Shown: positions 2,675 through 63,416 of the stretch, piece by piece
Position numbering within the stretch: the first letter of the stretch is position 1
Layout: the number at the start of each line of letters is the position of its first letter
NCBI GenBank assembly: GCA_023267195.1
Contig: JAHFNT010000004.1
Span: 64,603-128,602, forward strand
Length of the DNA stretch: 64,000 nt
Direction: 5' to 3'
Source of the DNA: Candidatus Nomurabacteria bacterium
GTDB lineage: Bacteria > Patescibacteriota > Minisyncoccia > Phycocordibacterales > UBA9973
The notes under the pieces: generated by a model
Databases searched by the model: none
Seen by the model: the letters and a program-made list of their open reading frames with translations, nothing else
Told to the model about the DNA's origin: nothing
Position numbers and translations under genes: made by a program

Positions 2675-4777
2675 CTAAATGCCAAACATTTGTTGTGTGT
2701 CATATATAAAACCAACCATAAGATTTGGTGTTAGAGTTATATCACTACCGGTTGGTGTTTCAATTTGGTTGGCAGCTAATGAACTACCATTTAAGTTTGA
2801 AATAACTAAATTGCTTGCACTGTCATTAAATATATGAACCTCACGCCCATCTGCACCGCCAGCAATACCAGTAATTGTCGCAGTGCCAACACCTTCATAA
2901 TGAAAATAAGAACCATCGCTCAGTACTAAATTATTTAAAGTTCCCGTAGTGGTAATAGGGGTACCTCTTGGTGTAACGTAATTTCCAACAATTTTTATAC
3001 CACCATTAATAGTAGTTTCAACACCAGCTTTTCCAACACTCAAGGAAGTTGCATTTGTTGTGCCTAAATTTAAAGCAGCAGCAGAATCGACAGTCAAAGC
3101 ACCAGAACTTGTCGACCAAACAGACGCTCCTCCGCCTGTAATAGTCAAACCAGAAGAAGGAGTTATGGAAGTAATTCCTGTTGCTGAAGTAATGTTATTA
3201 TTAACACCAGCAATGGCATTAGCAAAACCAGTATGGCCAGAAGAGGCATAATCTAAGCCAGTCAGATTGGCATGATTTGTAACAGAAGTCGAAGAACTTC
3301 CTGACATCGAGATAAGTGAAGTTACTTCAGTGGCAGTCGAAGCAGATTTTTGAAAAACAATTTTCCCTAAAAGTTTTCCAAATACTTTTAAACGATTAGG
3401 TAACATAGAAACATCTGGTGCCATTTCAGCATCAGCCAATGACGAAGTGGTATATTCATCCATTCCATATACCATAGAAACCCTTGCGTTAGTATCTATA
3501 TAAAACCACAAGGTGGCATAATTGCCGTCTGTTATTGTAGCCAAGGTTCCTGAACTATCATCGTATTGTGTATTTGGCCATTGGGTAAGATTAGAAACTT
3601 TGGTAAAACCTCCTGATCCATCCATATAATACGCATCAAAATTACCAGTTATACTGGTATTGAGGGCTGGAACAGTATACCTATTCAGCCTGTCCCAAAC
3701 AGCGCCAGCTGTAAGTGTAATATTTCTAGTACCGGTTTCTCCCAAAACCAACCCTCCTTCGCGAATATCTGGAGAAAGTGGCATCGTTTCATATTCGCGC
3801 TGGATCATATTGGCCGCATGGTCACCAACAGCTTGTAAATCACTGTAAATATTTAACACCCCACCCTCATTAACAACCACGCCAATTGGAAAATCTGTTT
3901 TCAAATTCCAGTTTGCAGAAGTGCGAACTGTAACTTGCGGAGAACCTGAATTGTATTCAACTCCGACATAACGGATAGCATCTGTTGGAATAGCAACACC
4001 ACTTACCGCTGCCCAATCAAAATAATTGACTTGGCCAGAAATAGCATTATTACTTGTTCTAATAAGACCAGTACCAGCAGAAACATCTATGGTCTCTCCC
4101 CCAGCATCAGTGATAGTTCCGCCAGAGGTCCAGCCAGCCGAGTGGAAAACATTTTGCATATGCTGCAAGGTAGAAAAAGTAGAATTGCCTATTCGGGCCA
4201 ATGTTAAATTTTGCGCGCTGGCAGTACTCTGAAAAATACAATCTCCCCAAGCGCCATTTTCATAACAACGCAGTTTGTTTGTATTTGCATTGTAATACAT
4301 CGAACCGTTAGTTCCAGATGGATCACCAGCGTCAGATTTTACATCCAGAGTAAGCAAGTCTGGAGTAGAAGAACCAGCGCCGCCTGTACCGATTTGAATC
4401 GTACCGGAAGCTCCGGCATTAGCCGAAAGAACTAAACCTGAAGATGGTGTAGAGATAGTTCCACCACCGACAGATAAATTTCCAGCATCATCAATAGCAA
4501 CATCAAAAGATGCACCTTCAAAGGTGATAGTGTAACCACCTAAGGTTAAAGTTCTAGCAGCAGTAAGAGTAAGATCGGTATTACCAATATTAGTAACAGC
4601 AGGAGTTGAAACTCCACAAGAAGGAGAGCCTGGCGCGCAATCAGGTTCTAACGTATCTCCAGGAGCATAAACCGTTGCGTTGGCTACTTGCGATAATGAT
4701 AGACTAAATATAAAAATAAAAACAGTGAAAAATTTTGGAAGATAGTATTTTTTAAAATTGTATTTGAAATTGCTCAT
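2675..4777 (-). CDS. Large secreted Gly/Thr/Ser/Asn-rich repeat protein, N-terminal part with signal peptide (putative adhesin or S-layer-like surface protein)
   Basis: 700-aa ORF. N-terminal hydrophobic signal (FTVFIFIFSLSLSQVANA). Low-complexity G/T/S/N-rich body. C-terminal module ITGIAGGADGREVHIFNDSASNLVISNLNG...GFIYD also occurs in the minus-strand translation of ~800-1000. Confidence 0.7.
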   Translation of the reverse strand: MSNFKYNFKKYYLPKFFTVFIFIFSLSLSQVANATVYAPGDTLEPDCAPGSPSCGVSTPAVTNIGNTDLTLTAARTLTLGGYTITFEGASFDVAIDDAGNLSVGGGTISTPSSGLVLSANAGASGTIQIGTGGAGSSTPDLLTLDVKSDAGDPSGTNGSMYYNANTNKLRCYENGAWGDCIFQSTASAQNLTLARIGNSTFSTLQHMQNVFHSAGWTSGGTITDAGGETIDVSAGTGLIRTSNNAISGQVNYFDWAAVSGVAIPTDAIRYVGVEYNSGSPQVTVRTSANWNLKTDFPIGVVVNEGGVLNIYSDLQAVGDHAANMIQREYETMPLSPDIREGGLVLGETGTRNITLTAGAVWDRLNRYTVPALNTSITGNFDAYYMDGSGGFTKVSNLTQWPNTQYDDSSGTLATITDGNYATLWFYIDTNARVSMVYGMDEYTTSSLADAEMAPDVSMLPNRLKVFGKLLGKIVFQKSASTATEVTSLISMSGSSSTSVTNHANLTGLDYASSGHTGFANAIAGVNNNITSATGITSITPSSGLTITGGGASVWSTSSGALTVDSAAALNLGTTNATSLSVGKAGVETTINGGIKIVGNYVTPRGTPITTTGTLNNLVLSDGSYFHYEGVGTATITGIAGGADGREVHIFNDSASNLVISNLNGSSLAANQIETPTGSDITLTPNLMVGFIYDTQQMFGI

Positions 4778-4835
4778 GAAATGGCTTAACTTAAACCAAA
4801 CTGGGCTTCATGAGCCTCTAGATAAAAAAAATTAA

Positions 4836-5333
4836 TTATTCCTTCTTCTTCAATTTGGATTCCGTACCAACATAAAAGAGAATCGCCCCGTTGGTATCGA
4901 AAATTGGCGAAATAACAAGTTTAACTTCATAAAATTTCCCATCTTTACGTTTATTAGACAAAACAGTTTGAAAAGATTTCTTTTCTCCTTTTATGGCACG
5001 CCACATTTGCTTATAAAATTCCGGTGGCATTTGATTTCCCCATAAATCTGAAGGCTTTTTCCCTATCACTTCCTTTGTAGTAAATCCTGTTTCCTTTTCT
5101 GTAACCTTATTTATATAGACAATTTTTCCTTCGGGGTCAGTAATCATAACCTGATCAGTTACCTGCTCAAAAATTACGTTAATAGTACCGCAACGATTGC
5201 ACTTGATCTCTAAACTACCACCAAAAAAATCTTTGGCTAGAAGTTTATCGCACGAAACACAACGAATCGAATTGTCGGGAAGTTTTTTTGTTTCTTTTAT
5301 TTCGCTCATTGTATGATTCTCAACAACGCGCAC
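4836..5333 (-). CDS. Zinc-ribbon plus PAS-domain sensor protein (start may be Met9 at 5309)
   Basis: C-x2-C...C-x2-C ribbon (CVSCDK...CNRCG) followed by a PAS-like fold (ITDPEGKIVYINKVTEKETGFTTKEVIGKK...FYEVKLVISPIFDTNGAILFYVG). Confidence 0.6.
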   Translation of the reverse strand: MRVVENHTMSEIKETKKLPDNSIRCVSCDKLLAKDFFGGSLEIKCNRCGTINVIFEQVTDQVMITDPEGKIVYINKVTEKETGFTTKEVIGKKPSDLWGNQMPPEFYKQMWRAIKGEKKSFQTVLSNKRKDGKFYEVKLVISPIFDTNGAILFYVGTESKLKKKE

Positions 5334-5458
5334 CTTACGCGGACGAGTCCTAACGAGCTTCTAAGAGCTTCAGATAAGGTTTATTATAACATGCTAAATA
5401 TAAGAATTCATTAAAACACACCCCGCGACATGTGGATAAATGTTGTATAATAAAAAAT

Positions 5459-5547
5459 TGGCGGAACCGGAGGGATTCGAACCCTCGAGACCTTTCAGCC
5501 TACGCGCTTTCCAAGCGCGCGCACTCGACCGCTATGCGACGGTTCCA
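5459..5547 (-). tRNA. tRNA-Ser (anticodon GGA). Long variable arm, G73, encoded CCA.
   Basis: Reverse complement folds as acceptor GGAACCG/CGGTTCC, 3-bp D stem, anticodon stem CGCGC/GCGCG with loop TTGGAAA, a long variable arm and T arm GAGGG-TTCGAAT-CCCTC. Confidence 0.8.
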
Positions 5548-5594
5548 GTGATAACACTTTATCACATCTTGAATTTTAATAAAGCGTAAATTTA

Positions 5595-8155
<2,561 letters not shown>

Positions 8156-22902: not shown

Positions 22903-22992
22903 TGGCGGAGAGAGAGGGATTCGAACCCTCGGTCCTTTTAAGGGGACGACAGTTTAGTAAACTGTTGGTTTAAACCACTCACCCATCTCTCC
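22903..22992 (-). tRNA. tRNA, Ser-type architecture (long variable arm, G73, encoded CCA). Anticodon loop TTACTAA gives anticodon ACU as read, which is unusual.
   Basis: Acceptor GGAGAGA/TCTCTCC, D stem GGT/ACC, anticodon stem ACAGT/ACTGT, T arm GAGGG-TTCGAAT-CCCTC (identical to the tRNA-Ser(GGA) T arm). Confidence 0.6.
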
Positions 22993-27035: not shown

Positions 27036-27770
27036 TTAAAAGCTAAACCATCCTTTTAATCTGGTCCAAAAGCTTTTTGGTTTTTCTTCTGTCGTAGCAG
27101 GAATTTTAATATTTTGATTGGTAATAGTGGGAGTGCTTTCTTTAACTTCTAGTACCTTTTTAACTACAGGAGTTTTTGTTTTTGTTTCTGTCTTTGAAAT
27201 AGGTACAGTGCCACTTCCACCACCACTTGGGAGTTGGTAACTTGTTTCTGTGGGTTTTGAGTTATTTATTTGTACTGGTTGAGGAACAATACACTCAGTT
27301 TTATTTGTATTCCACTCGTAACCACTCTTGCAGTCGCAAATTATGCTTCCTCCACCAATATATAGTCCATTCCATACACTATTTGCCCCATATTTATTAG
27401 GACAGGCTTGATTATTTGTTAAAGACTGTTGTTGAAACTTTTGGTTGTATTGTTGATTTCGTTGTAATTCCAACTGCTGGCGTTGGATATCTAATAGTTG
27501 TTGCTGATATTGCTGTCGTTGCTGTAATAATTTTTGTTGATTTTGTTGTTGTATAAGAGCGTCAAGTCTATCACCAGGTTGGGGAGCAATTTGTATATAT
27601 AAAGGGTTAAGCGATCCACCTGGATAAATTGTTCCATAAGCGTTAACGCTAAAAACAGGCAATGAAAAAATTACTGAAACTAATACAAAAATTATTTTGT
27701 TTTTCATATTTCGCGTAGGTTTTAATTGATAATAGCGAGAACAAAAAAGGTCTCGCGACACAGACGGCAA
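27036..27770 (-). CDS. Secreted Gln-rich coiled-coil protein with C-terminal Cys-containing domain, hypothetical
   Basis: Signal peptide and a Q-rich tract (QQQNQQKLLQQRQQYQQQLLDIQRQQLELQRNQQ). Confidence 0.45.
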   Translation of the reverse strand: MPSVSRDLFCSRYYQLKPTRNMKNKIIFVLVSVIFSLPVFSVNAYGTIYPGGSLNPLYIQIAPQPGDRLDALIQQQNQQKLLQQRQQYQQQLLDIQRQQLELQRNQQYNQKFQQQSLTNNQACPNKYGANSVWNGLYIGGGSIICDCKSGYEWNTNKTECIVPQPVQINNSKPTETSYQLPSGGGSGTVPISKTETKTKTPVVKKVLEVKESTPTITNQNIKIPATTEEKPKSFWTRLKGWFSF

Positions 27771-28250
27771 TTCCTTTCGAAATTGTCACTAGGCTATTTC
27801 TAGCCTAGACCTACGCGAATAGTGTCTGGTCACGAGACCATCTTTATTCGCGTAGGCTTTCATATTTGCACCATGCCATTTCTGGTTTAGGTGTTGTATT
27901 CATATAATACCTCCATTTAACTAATATCACAAATGCAAAATGTACCTAATTTCAAAGCTATTTTCTGAATTTTCTGGGCGATATTTTTTCATAGGCTTGT
28001 TTTCACAAAACCAAATTATTCCAAACAACCCCTATGACCTTTTTCAGTTTTGGGTTCCAGGACAGGCGTGGGTATGTTAACCCCATACGGGTAATTGTAA
28101 GGAATTATTGATTCAAGCCACTGCCCCCATGCCTTATTTTAAATATAGTTATTAGCTCATCAAAACTAAGCTAGTGAGATTAGGTCGAATATATAAGTCT
28201 CAAGATACGAGTTAGTCTCTCGTACAAATTAAATCTATTAAATTAACAAT
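27771..28250. promoter_or_regulatory. Divergent intergenic region of the island with nested inverted repeats. Candidate control or origin region.
   Basis: Hairpin ctaggct-atttct-agcctag. Palindrome tacgcgaata...tggtcacgagacca...tattcgcgta. No ORF. Confidence 0.4.
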
Positions 28251-43982: not shown

Positions 43983-43986
43983 ATTG

Positions 43987-44060
43987 TCCGCCCTCTTGGA
44001 TTCGAACCAAGGACCCCAGAGGTATAAGCTCTGTGCTCTAACCAGCTGAGCTAAGGGCGG
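43987..44060 (-). tRNA. tRNA-Ile (anticodon UAU, decoding AUA). CCA not encoded.
   Basis: D arm TAGCTCAGCTGGTTAGAGC, anticodon stem CAGAG/CTCTG with loop CTTATAC, T arm CTTGG-TTCGAAT-CCAAG, acceptor CCGCCCT/AGGGCGG. Confidence 0.75.
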
Positions 44061-46484: not shown

Positions 46485-46882
46485 GGGGATGCAAGGCATA
46501 GACAGTTGGTCCATTTGTCAAAAATGCATACCGAGCATGGACGTAATCTCGTAAAAATTCGTTCAAATGTTAATTGCAAAATTGACTGCTAAGGCAAAAG
46601 CTGTCGTCTCTCCATTCTTCGGAATGAATGACTTCGCTTTTGCTTCGGTTTCCGCTTTAGCGTAAGCCGATGTCTCTCGTATAGACTTCCGATATATACG
46701 TCGAGGCATAATATTATCGGGATAAGGGAATGCCCGCTCGAGCACTTCACGAAAACCTAGAGCTCGATTAAAAAATATTTGGCGCGTTTAAGAATTTTTT
46801 AATCTAAACCGAAAAGCGCGCTATGTATGTAGATTTTTTTGCAAAAACCTTCTGCACGGGGATTCGATTTCCCCCATCTCCA
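46485..46882 (+). ncRNA. ssrA: tmRNA (ssrA), ~398 nt. tRNA-Ala-like ends with a G3:U70 pair. Predicted tag ends ...SALA-stop.
   Basis: 5' GGGGATG pairs with 3' CATCTCC-A (G3:U70). T arm GGGGA-TTCGATT-TCCCC. Internal ORF gca aaa gct ... gct tta gcg taa. Lies right after smpB. Confidence 0.7.
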
Positions 46883-46959
46883 CAAAACATTGACTTTAAA
46901 GCACAATTACGCTATTATCTCCTAGTAGTCAAAGGCTCTAATAGCTTTACTTATATCAA

Positions 46960-57447: not shown

Positions 57448-58020
57448 ATGGTTAAAAAAGAAATTATAACGATCACAGGCTTCCCGGGAAGTGGTAAATC
57501 AAGCACGGCAGATGGAGTGGCAAAAGCACTTGGGTTTCAGAGATTTTCTTCTGGTGACTTTATGCGCCAGATTGCTATTGACCGAAAAATTTCTCTCAAC
57601 GAACTGAGTGTACTCGCGGAAAGAGACACAACGGTAGATGAAAGTATCGACAATGCAGTGAAAAAAGCTGGTAAAATGGACAAAGTTGTTATCGACTCTC
57701 GTTTAGCATTCCACTGGATACCAAATTCTTTTAAGGTATACCTAGATCTTCCTTTAGAGATCGCCAAGGAAAGAATTTCACACAATCTAAAAACAAATAC
57801 GTTGCGGCAAGAGAGCGAGGGACAAACTGATGTTGACGAAGTGTATAAAAAAATAGTCGCACGGCTTGAATCTGAGAAAAAGAGATACAAAGAGCTCTAT
57901 AACATAGACCACACAGACAAAACTAATTTCGATTTAGTGATAGACACAAACAAAAACAACTTAGAACAAGTTGTGAATGTTATCGTTTCGGAATATAAAA
58001 AGTGGAGAGAAAAAATTTAG
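57448..58020 (+). CDS. cmk: Cytidylate kinase, archaeal-type (CMP kinase)
   Basis: ITITGFPGSGKSST P-loop and VVIDSRLAFHWIP. Opposite strand to the flanking secY and adk. Confidence 0.65.
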   Translation: MVKKEIITITGFPGSGKSSTADGVAKALGFQRFSSGDFMRQIAIDRKISLNELSVLAERDTTVDESIDNAVKKAGKMDKVVIDSRLAFHWIPNSFKVYLDLPLEIAKERISHNLKTNTLRQESEGQTDVDEVYKKIVARLESEKKRYKELYNIDHTDKTNFDLVIDTNKNNLEQVVNVIVSEYKKWREKI

Positions 58021-61167: not shown

Positions 61168-61554
61168 CTACCAAACTCTGAACAAAGCTTCCCCACCGAC
61201 TTGTTCTTTGCGAGCTTCTTTACCTGATAAAATTCCTTTGGGCGTTGAAAGCACCAATAAACCGGACCCATTACGAACTGAATGAATATCTTTCATGCCA
61301 AAATATACGCGGCGAGACTGTTTGGAAATTCTTTCTACTTCCGTAATTTTTGGTTTTTTATCTACATAAACTAATTTAACTTCGAGCAAAGGTTGTCCGA
61401 GTTTTATTTTCTTAGAAATATCAGAAACATAACCTGCTTTTTTCAAACACTCAGCAATAGCGTTTTTCATCTTTGAATAAGGAACAGAAACAGACTCCTT
61501 ACCTGCGAGGCTTCCGTTCTTCATCACTATTATCATGTTTGAAATTGAATCCAT
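61168..61554 (-). CDS. rpsH: 30S ribosomal protein S8 (start taken at MDSISNMI; the listed upstream extension would overlap rpsZ)
   Basis: DSISNMIIVMKNG...LLVLSTPKGILSGKEARKEQVGGEALFRVW. Confidence 0.85.
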   Translation of the reverse strand: MDSISNMIIVMKNGSLAGKESVSVPYSKMKNAIAECLKKAGYVSDISKKIKLGQPLLEVKLVYVDKKPKITEVERISKQSRRVYFGMKDIHSVRNGSGLLVLSTPKGILSGKEARKEQVGGEALFRVW

Positions 61555-61570
61555 AATTTTATTTATATTC

Positions 61571-61756
61571 TTACCAGCTTGATTTACGAACACCCGGAAG
61601 CATTCCTTCATTAGCTAATTCTCGAAAACAGATACGGCAAATACCAAAGTCGCGCATGAAGGCATTCCCCCTGCCACAGCGAAAACATCGATTTTTAGCT
61701 CGTGTTGAAAATTTTGGTTTCTTCGCCGCTCGGGCTTTGACTGATGTTTTTGCCAT
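61571..61756 (-). CDS. rpsZ: 30S ribosomal protein S14, type Z (zinc-binding)
   Basis: 61 aa. [25 protein letters not shown]. Confidence 0.9.
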
Positions 61757-61908
61757 AAAAATTTAATCGGGAGCGCTCTGTTAATATCTCACTTTTTTTC
61801 TTTAACCCTTTAAACTAAAGAATTAAAGGAGAAAAATGGATTAATCAAAGCTCTATTCCCTTGAAGACATACTAGCAAAAAAATGGAAAATAGTCAAATA
61901 AATTTAAC

Positions 61909-62742
61909 TTATCGAACACAACGAACATCCCAATTAGTAGCCTTATCTCTGCCGTACGTGTCGCCATCATAAAAATCGACATACCATGCCAGACTCTGGC
62001 CACCAGTGTCCTGGTAGGTAGTACTAGACCAGTAGATGTAATTTTGCGCATTAAATAAATTATTAATTGCTGGAGCTAATCTGTCATAATCAACTATGGA
62101 TGTAATCTCTCGAATATTTGGTAGACGCCAGTCTGTATATCCTCCGGTGGTGTCTGCTTCACAATCGGCCAAGGCCTGCGTCCAGTTTTCACGAGTCACG
62201 ACACCTGTGGCGCACGTTGCGCCAGTTAATCCTTGAGTGCATTTCTTCCACATTAAACCAGTAGCATTGTCTGTGATAGTGCCATCACTATTATCAGTAT
62301 AAGCCGGCGCAATGCCTTTCTGGTAATATCCATCTTGCCCACCCAAGGCAGTACCTCCATCTGTACAAGTAATGGTTGCACCAGTTGCGTCCCAACATCC
62401 TGTTTGATTTGTCTTCGGTAAACCCCCTGCAGAAGCACTCCCCGCTTTACCAAAAATAGAAGTACCAGTTAAGATCTTGGTTTCATCTATCGCAGCGATT
62501 TTAGTGGTCATTAGATCATAGATGTCTCCGAGAGAGTTCATGGTAGAGGAAACGGTAGCTGGTGTCGTAAAGTCAGTAGAAGGAGTGTTAGCTCCAGTAT
62601 TGATGAGTTGATAAAGATCAGAAAGAGATTTCATGGTTTTGGAGGGAGAACCAGGTGGAGTGAGGGTGCCGGCGTAGGATATGCCTATACCTACCAGAAC
62701 GGCAATCAATACAAAGGAGAAAATTAAAATTAGTTTTTTCAT
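61909..62742 (-). CDS. Secreted DUF1566 (Lcl C-terminal domain) protein inserted within the ribosomal-protein cluster
   Basis: Signal peptide. GTITDNATGLMWKKC, DWRLPNIREITSIVDY, YWSSTTY, ending VRCVR (DUF1566 hallmarks). Confidence 0.65.
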   Translation of the reverse strand: MKKLILIFSFVLIAVLVGIGISYAGTLTPPGSPSKTMKSLSDLYQLINTGANTPSTDFTTPATVSSTMNSLGDIYDLMTTKIAAIDETKILTGTSIFGKAGSASAGGLPKTNQTGCWDATGATITCTDGGTALGGQDGYYQKGIAPAYTDNSDGTITDNATGLMWKKCTQGLTGATCATGVVTRENWTQALADCEADTTGGYTDWRLPNIREITSIVDYDRLAPAINNLFNAQNYIYWSSTTYQDTGGQSLAWYVDFYDGDTYGRDKATNWDVRCVR

Positions 62743-62755
62743 ACAGTAAAGTATA

Positions 62756-62765
62756 CCCCCCCCCC
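62756..62765 (-). repeat. Homopolymeric G10 (C10 on plus strand) tract, 13 nt upstream of the DUF1566 ATG and directly abutting a TATACT -10-like hexamer
   Basis: Minus strand reads cgGGGGGGGGGGtatactttactgtATG. Confidence 0.8.
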
Positions 62766-62800
62766 GAATCCTGTTAGCAAGAAAATTGGTGGGGATAACG

Positions 62801-62830
62801 TAAAAACACCCACTAGTCGAGGGTGTTTTT
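62801..62830. terminator. Bidirectional hairpin terminator downstream of rplE
   Basis: aaaaacaccc-actagtcga-gggtgttttt. Confidence 0.55.
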
Positions 62831-62849
62831 AATTACATGTTAGCAAATT

Positions 62850-63416
62850 TTATTTTTTCTTCTTTTCTTCTTCTTTCTTAAAGGGAATTCCTAGAAGTTC
62901 GAAGAAAGCAGTGCCTTCTTTTTTATTTTTAGCAGTGGAAACGAGAGTGATAGATAAACCAAAAACATCGCGGATATCTTCATCGGCAGTTTCAGGGAAA
63001 ATGGTATGTTCTTTGATACCGATGGTAAGATTACCGATATTGTCTACCCCGCTTCTGTTTATACCACGAAAGTCTTTCGTTCGAGGAAGCGCGACATTGA
63101 TAAGCTTTTCGAGAAAAGCAAACATTCTTTTACCGCGAAGGGTCGCGACGACACCGACAGGATCTCCTTGGCGAATTTTGAAAGAAGAGATTGATTGCTT
63201 TGCACCTCGGAGGGCTGTCTTTTGACCGGTGATTTTCGCTAGACGATCAGCGACCGCTTCGTTTTTATTCTTATCTTTTTTGACCATCGTGCCAGTGCCG
63301 ACATTAATAACAACCTTTGCCATCTTTGGAGATGCCATGACGTTTTTATAATGAAAAAGTTCTTTCATTTTTCCAAAAACCTCTCCTTCTTTTTCTTTGA
63401 CAGTTAAATGTTTCAT
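62850..63416 (-). CDS. rplE: 50S ribosomal protein L5
   Basis: 188 aa. VINVGTGTMVKKDKNKNEAVADRLAKITGQK. Confidence 0.9.
   Translation of the reverse strand: MKHLTVKEKEGEVFGKMKELFHYKNVMASPKMAKVVINVGTGTMVKKDKNKNEAVADRLAKITGQKTALRGAKQSISSFKIRQGDPVGVVATLRGKRMFAFLEKLINVALPRTKDFRGINRSGVDNIGNLTIGIKEHTIFPETADEDIRDVFGLSITLVSTAKNKKEGTAFFELLGIPFKKEEEKKKK

Follow-up and report, generated by a model that had tools for sequence, protein, structure and literature searches.

The 64-kb window analysed here, a stretch of contig JAHFNT010000004.1 from a Candidatus Nomurabacteria bacterium, carries on its minus strand a ribosomal protein gene cluster in the order L14-L24-L5-S14-S8-L6-L18-S5-L15-SecY. Between rplE (L5) and rpsZ (S14) of this cluster lies an open reading frame (ORF) for a protein of the Lcl_C/DUF1566 family, a predicted surface lectin, and its putative promoter holds a run of ten G residues in the spacer. 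The ORFs and Pfam matches, including that of S8 next to S14, bear out the position of the gene and the ribosomal gene order given in a preliminary description of the locus. For comparison we took the 80 L5 loci closest to that of the window in GTDB representative genomes and located L24, L5, S14 and S8 in each. These loci belong to Candidatus Nomurabacteria or Paceibacterota, within the Candidate Phyla Radiation (CPR) of ultra-small bacteria, with L5 identities of at most 87%.

Read on the coding strand, the DNA in front of the lectin gene consists of the -35-like hexamer TTGCTA, a 9-nucleotide (nt) segment (ACAGGATTC), G10, the -10 hexamer TATACT, the heptamer TTACTGT and the ATG at position 62742. 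The G tract directly adjoins the -10 element, as the preliminary description had recognised when it proposed a promoter belonging to the gene itself; more precisely, it sits within the spacer between -35 and -10. With a length of ten, the tract is the longest G/C homopolymer in the window, which has a GC content of 38% and in which the runner-up measures seven. Since the -10 hexamer ends 7 nt before the ATG, a leaderless transcript is implied, and we infer both that this promoter is used and that the lectin mRNA starts without a leader.

Upstream of this promoter, rplE is followed by an intrinsic terminator, also described previously, in which a hairpin precedes a U-run (ΔG -16.3 kcal/mol, z -3.78; none of 200 shuffled sequences was as stable). 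A simple terminator scan of positions 61500-63000 found nothing, having probably missed this hairpin because of its longer loop. Equivalent hairpins occur after L5 in relatives, as well as before the same promoter layout at loci L083, L166 and L169. The terminator is flanked by a 9-nt direct repeat (TTGCTAACA; 62837-62848 and 62771-62781, minus strand), one copy of which lies right after the L5 stop codon and the other of which supplies the -35-like hexamer. The repeat could be a remnant of the event that brought the promoter layout to this site.

We traced the layout beyond the window by following a PG_binding_1 gene, the usual partner of DUF1566 genes of this type, into other lineages. The order of elements is the same throughout: terminator hairpin, -35-like hexamer, short spacer segment, G(n), -10 hexamer, short gap and ATG, with a consensus of TTGC[TG]A-9 nt-G(n)-TATA[AC]T-7 nt-ATG in the window, L083/L084, L166 and L169-171. 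The window and the two further assemblies of its lineage (L001 and L002) combine TTGCTA and TATACT with G10, giving a spacer of 19 nt, and L083 and L084 reach the same spacer with TTGCGA, G10 and TATAAT. L166, with 88% DNA identity to L083, has the hexamers of L083 around G7 (spacer 16 nt), and L169-171, from three samples, have TTGCTA and TATAAT around G9 (spacer 18 nt). At the more distant L173, TTGCTT is followed by 8 nt, G8 and TATAAT (spacer 16 nt), and a long leader of ~62 nt separates the -10 hexamer from the ATG. Conserved across lineages are thus the two hexamers, the purity of the run and the flanking distances, but not the nine other spacer bases. The distance from -10 to ATG is 7 nt in L083, L166, L169 and L167, and 5 nt in L168.

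At L083, L166, L169 and L173 this arrangement precedes PG_binding_1-DUF1566 operons at unrelated genomic sites (that of L083 lies beside a D-Ala-D-Ala ligase gene), and it therefore accompanies the genes, not the L5-S14 site. Long G runs are closely tied to promoters in this clade. All runs of at least 10 G in ~0.64 Mb of Nomurabacteria DNA stand directly 5′ of a -10-like hexamer near a start codon, and all unique runs of at least 9 G in ~0.7 Mb abut such a hexamer. One of them, the G13 run of L004, abuts TACTAT ahead of the reverse transcriptase (RT) gene of a diversity-generating retroelement (DGR). In two further lineages of the PG_binding_1-DUF1566 operon, other simple repeats take up the same position just 5′ of a -10 motif (GGTATACT), namely T12(AT)5, then GT, at L085 (2810-2845) and (AT) repeated at least 10 times at L172 (1-30), where the contig begins inside the repeat.

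The two assemblies closest to the window are L001, which is 100% identical, and L002, which differs by a single-nucleotide polymorphism (SNP) in 1293 nt. L002 keeps the G10 promoter and the opening 35 nt of the ORF but then departs into unrelated sequence (..FSFV, then FNIYSIIARTSFSAIINNS) that runs to the contig end; the stretch concerned is L002 3334-3390, whose counterpart in the window lies immediately beyond 62708. This tail has no match in the window, the compared loci or the protein database. L002 could be a strain variant carrying a different gene downstream of this promoter, or its end could be chimeric. The divergence 35 nt into the ORF prompted the idea that a deletion may have joined the beginning of a PG_binding_1 gene to a DUF1566 gene and so created the window gene; the N-terminus of the window protein, over its full length, aligns acceptably with DUF1566 homologues.

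The gene encodes 277 residues, of which 154-277 form a full-length match to Pfam Lcl_C/DUF1566 (PF07603; E 2.7e-30, 105.5 bits against a gathering cutoff of 34.9), so that the family assignment made from motifs alone now has profile support. In an AlphaFold model this C-terminal domain is confident (predicted local distance difference test, pLDDT, 75-92), and its best match in the PDB (Foldseek) is the C-terminal domain of Legionella Lcl (8q4e_A, E 1.2e-5), with C-type lectin-like domains next. As modelled, the DUF1566 domain is of C-type-lectin-like fold. The Lcl adhesin of Legionella pneumophila is the namesake of the Pfam family and the closest structure (target-normalised template modelling score 0.67), but the identity is 21%, the collagen-like repeats are absent from the window protein, and its N-terminal half is unrelated. 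Two NCBIfam adhesin models, Lsa25 (NF047850; 60.8 bits, cutoff 260) and the FimD tip adhesin (NF052322; 29.3 bits, cutoff 170), matched below their curated cutoffs, through the shared Lcl_C-like part only.

The N-terminus (MKKLILIFSFVLIAVLVGIGISYA, followed by G) resembles a Sec signal peptide by inspection, with a hydrophobic core of 18 residues and a cleavage site between SYA and G. The SYAG motif is conserved in 18 homologues, with Y23 and A24 invariant, in agreement with the signal peptide proposed earlier. Because this motif is conserved, we favour the ATG at 62742 over the TTG start of the 266-residue database version (P0001). The product is thus predicted to be a secreted or surface C-type-lectin-like ligand-binding protein. 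Its closest homologues (P0002-P0006, 59-68% identity) are encoded outside the ribosomal cluster, each after a PG_binding_1 gene. This gene pairing recurs widely in CPR, and the window gene is without its usual partner. An exact-match scan of Joint Genome Institute (JGI) metagenomes for TTGCTAACAGGATTCGGGGGG gave no matches, and a family-level metagenome scan returned only homologues of at most 49% identity, mostly from higher-GC organisms, with nothing informative on the tract.

At the level of the family, the lectin is linked to DGRs with high confidence on comparative grounds, a connection absent from the preliminary description. DUF1566 is a recognised class of DGR targets, CLec2 of the Legionella LdtA type, and DUF1566/CLec2 variable proteins make up category ‘d’ of Wu et al. 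2018 (PMC5758913). Downstream of the PG_binding_1-DUF1566 pair at L085 come bAvd, a repeat and an RT gene. This repeat is a template repeat (TR, 5145-5295), from which the variable region (VR, 4425-4575) departs at 23 of the 54 adenines but at a single one of the 97 remaining positions. Compared with the same TR, the L083 gene has mismatches at 20/52 adenines and 1/92 non-adenines. The L085 and L083 proteins are 65-68% identical to the window protein, and Avd or RT genes lie near several other loci of the family. In the alignment of otherwise close homologues, the block between YWSSTTY and VRCVR is hypervariable. The window protein shares with DGR variable proteins its short length, putative signal peptide, Lcl_C/C-type-lectin-like domain and hypervariable C-terminal block.

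The site at which the gene lies is itself distinctive. Distances from L5 to S14 range from 136 to 3756 nt in 67 relatives, with 27 ‘empty’ gaps of 136-255 nt and 40 gaps above 300 nt, and three additional loci have no S14 within 4 kb of L5. Gaps of more than 300 nt are found at none of 79 loci between L24 and L5 and at none of 65 between S14 and S8. The cargo includes 11 N_methyl type IV pilin-like proteins with a recurrent small partner, toxin-antitoxin modules (PemK/MazE, Gp49/HTH and SocA), AAA_14/DUF4143 ATPases, TruB, guanylate and cytidylate kinases, dCTP deaminase, a PG_binding_1 protein, RVT_1 and, at L004, a complete DGR. No DUF1566 homologue was found in the L5-S14 gaps of the relatives, so that the insertion in the window is not common to them.

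Several of these loci deserve separate mention. The DGR of L004 (Ca. Paceibacterota SO_2016_GW1_160) occupies 4745-7247, inside the L5-S14 gap, and consists of a 202-residue target with a VR at 5224-5348, a TR at 5686-5810 (88% over 125 nt), avd at 5816-6181 on the minus strand and the RT gene at 6216-7247; the G13 run takes up most of the 34-nt divergent region between avd and the RT gene. Simple repeats were rejected as a general feature of the hotspot, this G13 run being the sole case in 61.7 kb of gap DNA. At L031, a stretch of more than 4 kb after L5 without S14 (4631-8146) encodes a 522-residue secreted protein ending in a PG_binding_1-like part, three pilin-like proteins and a small ‘ALKEFEAK’ partner, all of which appear to be surface cargo. 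A cytidylate-kinase-like gene lies on the opposite strand between secY and adk both in the window (57448-58020, plus strand) and at L167 (2116-2685), and the L5-S14 gap of L069 holds a kinase resembling it as cargo (4604-5191). At L167 the ribosomal cluster ends in an AA_kinase gene, which is followed by the PG_binding_1 gene.

In an ‘empty’ gap, L5 may be followed by a terminator; next comes a near-consensus promoter (TTGACT, 17 nt, TGCTAGTAT) and then, up to S14, a leader of ~100-140 nt. With or without cargo, 55 of the 67 relatives have the S14 promoter 124-168 nt upstream of the S14 ATG, and its spacer is typically 17 nt. Because S14 has its own conserved promoter and leader, the ribosomal cluster is split into two transcription units at this point, and the same elements, together with the terminator after rplE, explain why the site tolerates cargo. 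An insertion between L5 and S14 would be unusual in E. coli or Bacillus, and the preliminary description had regarded it as an unusual break in a conserved operon. Within Nomurabacteria this does not hold, since the junction is an operon boundary at which 40 of 67 relatives carry unrelated cargo, and with high confidence we read the insertion as cargo at a clade-specific operon boundary and hotspot. The L5-S14 gap is a natural boundary where arriving genes should leave ribosomal protein expression undisturbed, and it has become a recurrent landing place.

The S14 leader is also of interest as an RNA. Equivalent stretches of 100-140 nt precede rpsZ in L003-L082, and an alignment of 47 leaders supports a two-helix structure in which RNAalifold predicts 17 pairs, 13 of them with compensatory changes. 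Three outer pairs were added; one of them spans an invariant AU bulge of 2 nt and is formed by GC in 25 sequences, by AU in 19 and by CG in 2, with no unpaired case. In the resulting 20-pair model 95.5% of cells are paired, compared with 32-57% in slid controls; 15 of the 20 pairs change on both sides, and none of 500 shuffles reaches the observed scores. The leader carries an invariant GAUAU with the 2-nt bulge flanked by a covarying pair, which we take to resemble the S8 site of 16S helix 21. Rfam 15 gave nothing relevant for the leader at E ≤ 1 (61400-63000) or at gathering thresholds (whole window), and a survey of new ribosomal leaders has no S14/S8 entry in CPR (PMC7247131). The S8 site of the E. 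coli spc operon overlaps the start of rplE and is confined to Gammaproteobacteria (PMC3616713). The gene set is the same in both cases and a structured mRNA element is tied to the S14/S8 part, but the E. coli site lies inside one operon, whereas the Nomurabacteria RNA is a 5′ leader behind a dedicated promoter in a cluster split at L5-S14. The strongly covarying leader, which appears to be undescribed, may be a new ribosomal protein autoregulatory element, and S8 as its ligand is our guess.

Table 1 Features of the L5-S14 region in the window (positions of the 64-kb window)
Feature	Position	Strand	Basis
rplE (ribosomal protein L5), last gene of the upstream transcription unit	62850..63416	-	Pfam Ribosomal_L5 and Ribosomal_L5_C
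Intrinsic terminator hairpin after rplE (AAAAACACCC..GGGUGUUUUU, then U-run)	62802..62830	-	RNA folding
-35-like hexamer TTGCTA	62775..62780	-	TTGC[TG]A found in four lineages, 9 nt before the tract
G10 homopolymer (C10 on the plus strand), candidate slipped-strand tract in the promoter spacer	62756..62765	-	Longest G/C run
-10 hexamer TATACT, 7 nt upstream of ATG	62750..62755	-	Promoter scan
Gene for the 277-residue, putatively secreted Lcl_C/DUF1566 (C-type-lectin-like) protein	61909..62742	-	Pfam match, AlphaFold, PDB match
Putative signal peptide, residues 1-24 (MKK, hydrophobic core, SYA/G)	62671..62742	-	Inspection; hydrophobicity maximum 3.2
Segment equivalent to the DGR variable region (C-terminal ~48 codons, YWSSTTY..VRCVR)	61909..62056	-	Aligns to the L085 template repeat
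Promoter of S14-S8-L6-L18-S5-L15-SecY, TTGACT-17 nt-(TGC)TAGTAT	61869..61897	-	Promoter scan; 11 nt after the DUF1566 stop
Structured 5′ leader of rpsZ, candidate ribosomal protein leader RNA	61757..61868	-	47-sequence alignment
rpsZ (61-residue zinc-type S14)	61571..61756	-	Pfam Ribosomal_S14

Elsewhere in the window, Rfam matches at gathering level mark a LOOT RNA (27766-27893, minus strand, 55.8 bits) and a tmRNA (46485-46885, plus strand, 120.9 bits). ARAGORN called two candidate tRNAs on the minus strand, tRNA-Ile with anticodon TAT (43986-44060) and tRNA-Ser with anticodon ACT (22903-22992), both anticodons being unusual for bacteria.

The geometry of the lectin promoter suggests how the tract could act. 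The gene would have a sigma-70-type promoter of its own that yields a leaderless mRNA, and slipped-strand mispairing in the G tract would alter the spacer, from 16 to 19 nt for G7 to G10. For sigma-70 promoters, such as those of E. coli or of porA and opc in Neisseria, this range runs from near-optimal to poor spacing. Each change would raise or lower promoter strength and make lectin expression stochastic or lineage-dependent; at the 19-nt spacer set by G10, a weak or ‘off’ promoter would be predicted. Switches of this kind are known from poly-G in porA and poly-C in opc of N. meningitidis, poly-C in fim of Bordetella pertussis, poly-A in vlp of Mycoplasma hyorhinis and (TA)n in hif of Haemophilus. 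The Nomurabacteria promoter resembles them in having a simple repeat between -35 and -10 of a surface or secreted protein gene and in varying in length among related lineages. It differs in belonging to an uncultured CPR bacterium, in its apparently leaderless mRNA and in its spacers of 16-19 nt, never 17. The literature we searched holds no report of phase-variable promoters in CPR; the nearest is of a hypervariable coding repeat in a Gracilibacterium (PMC6851277).

A slipped-strand switch had been put forward in the preliminary description, and the comparison of lineages makes it plausible, with G7, G8, G9 and G10 found in a near-fixed geometry. Indels limited to the pure G run, flanks kept in register and a hypervariable surface lectin as the target together fit a slipped-strand promoter rheostat, and we give phase or graded variation through the poly-G spacer about an even chance. 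The effect of tract length and its reversibility within a population we likewise infer. Several observations weigh against a switch. All three assemblies of the window lineage have G10 (they may not be independent), and all three samples of the L169 lineage have G9. The differences in tract length lie between lineages that are 12-20% diverged in DNA and that differ by other indels too (8 gaps in 2 kb). No spacer is at the 17-nt optimum, the -35 hexamer is assigned by its conservation alone, and the more distant operons at L167 and L168 have a plain gtgtgttgTATAAT without a tract.

These same observations give weight to a different explanation, in which the tract serves the promoter or its regulation as a fixed element, perhaps as G-rich DNA upstream of the -10 that polymerase or a regulator reads. 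Selection would maintain such an element, and its length would drift slowly between species while switching nothing. Unbroken G runs do persist across the diverged lineages, their consensus length is steady across samples within each lineage, L167 and L168 have the G/T-rich gtgtgttg at the same place, and an unrelated gene, the DGR RT gene of L004, has G13 abutting TACTAT. A fixed element would be expected to keep a constant length, yet lengths of 7, 8, 9, 10 and 13 occur while both flanking distances stay (near-)fixed, which is the pattern of slippage, and other lineages have poly-T or (TA)n at this position. Runs of 9-13 G are, moreover, intrinsically unstable in bacteria. Because the comparisons span 12-20% divergence, length is stable within lineages and no 17-nt state was seen, the fixed element remains a serious rival, one we hold to be possible though on balance doubtful. 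It is improbable that the promoter layout is irrelevant, the tract a neutral leftover of insertion and any expression due to read-through from the highly transcribed L14-L24-L5 unit. The gene is co-oriented with the cluster, as are many cargo genes in other genomes, and no terminator separates it from the S14 promoter, whose -35 element begins 11 nt after its stop codon. Nevertheless, a stable terminator stands between rplE and the gene, and the same succession of terminator, promoter and tract has travelled with the genes to unrelated sites (L083, L166, L169 and L173), which makes expression by read-through only unlikely. A sequencing or assembly artefact, such as the poly-G artefacts that occur in two-colour Illumina data, is scarcely credible as the source of G10: the run is internal to contigs with unique sequence on both sides, it recurs in three assemblies, one with a SNP difference, and four further lineages, from samples unrelated to these, have a homologous tract at the corresponding point of the promoter.

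Returning to the slipped-strand switch, we tentatively consider a wider possibility, less probable than the switch itself: that in these CPR episymbionts the lectin operon is under two independent stochastic systems, with a slipped-strand poly-G (or poly-T/(TA)n) spacer setting whether the protein is made or at what level and a DGR rewriting the ligand-binding tip, and that variable surface genes (lectins, pilins and whole DGRs) preferentially settle at the L5-S14 boundary, which the terminator and the dedicated S14 promoter and leader insulate. The mismatches of the window gene itself to the L085 TR fall at 22/54 adenines and 23/93 non-adenines, a weak enrichment without the clear adenine-specificity of DGR variable proteins, and the gene differs from these also in having no PG_binding_1 partner and no RT, Avd or TR within 64 kb. 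In the window we found no template repeat of its 3′ end and, by tblastn with two CPR DGR RTs and one bAvd, no match to DGR RT or Avd at E ≤ 1.

For studies of pangenomes and strain variation, the L5-S14 junction would be useful as a specific accessory-gene hotspot of Nomurabacteria, and it is a caveat for phylogenomics and binning that rely on blocks of ribosomal proteins. The prevailing view is that CPR bacteria live attached to host cells, and to our knowledge the variation of their attachment proteins is largely unexplained beyond DGRs. If true, the poly-G switch ahead of this lectin gene would be the first contingency-type switch known from CPR in the literature we searched.

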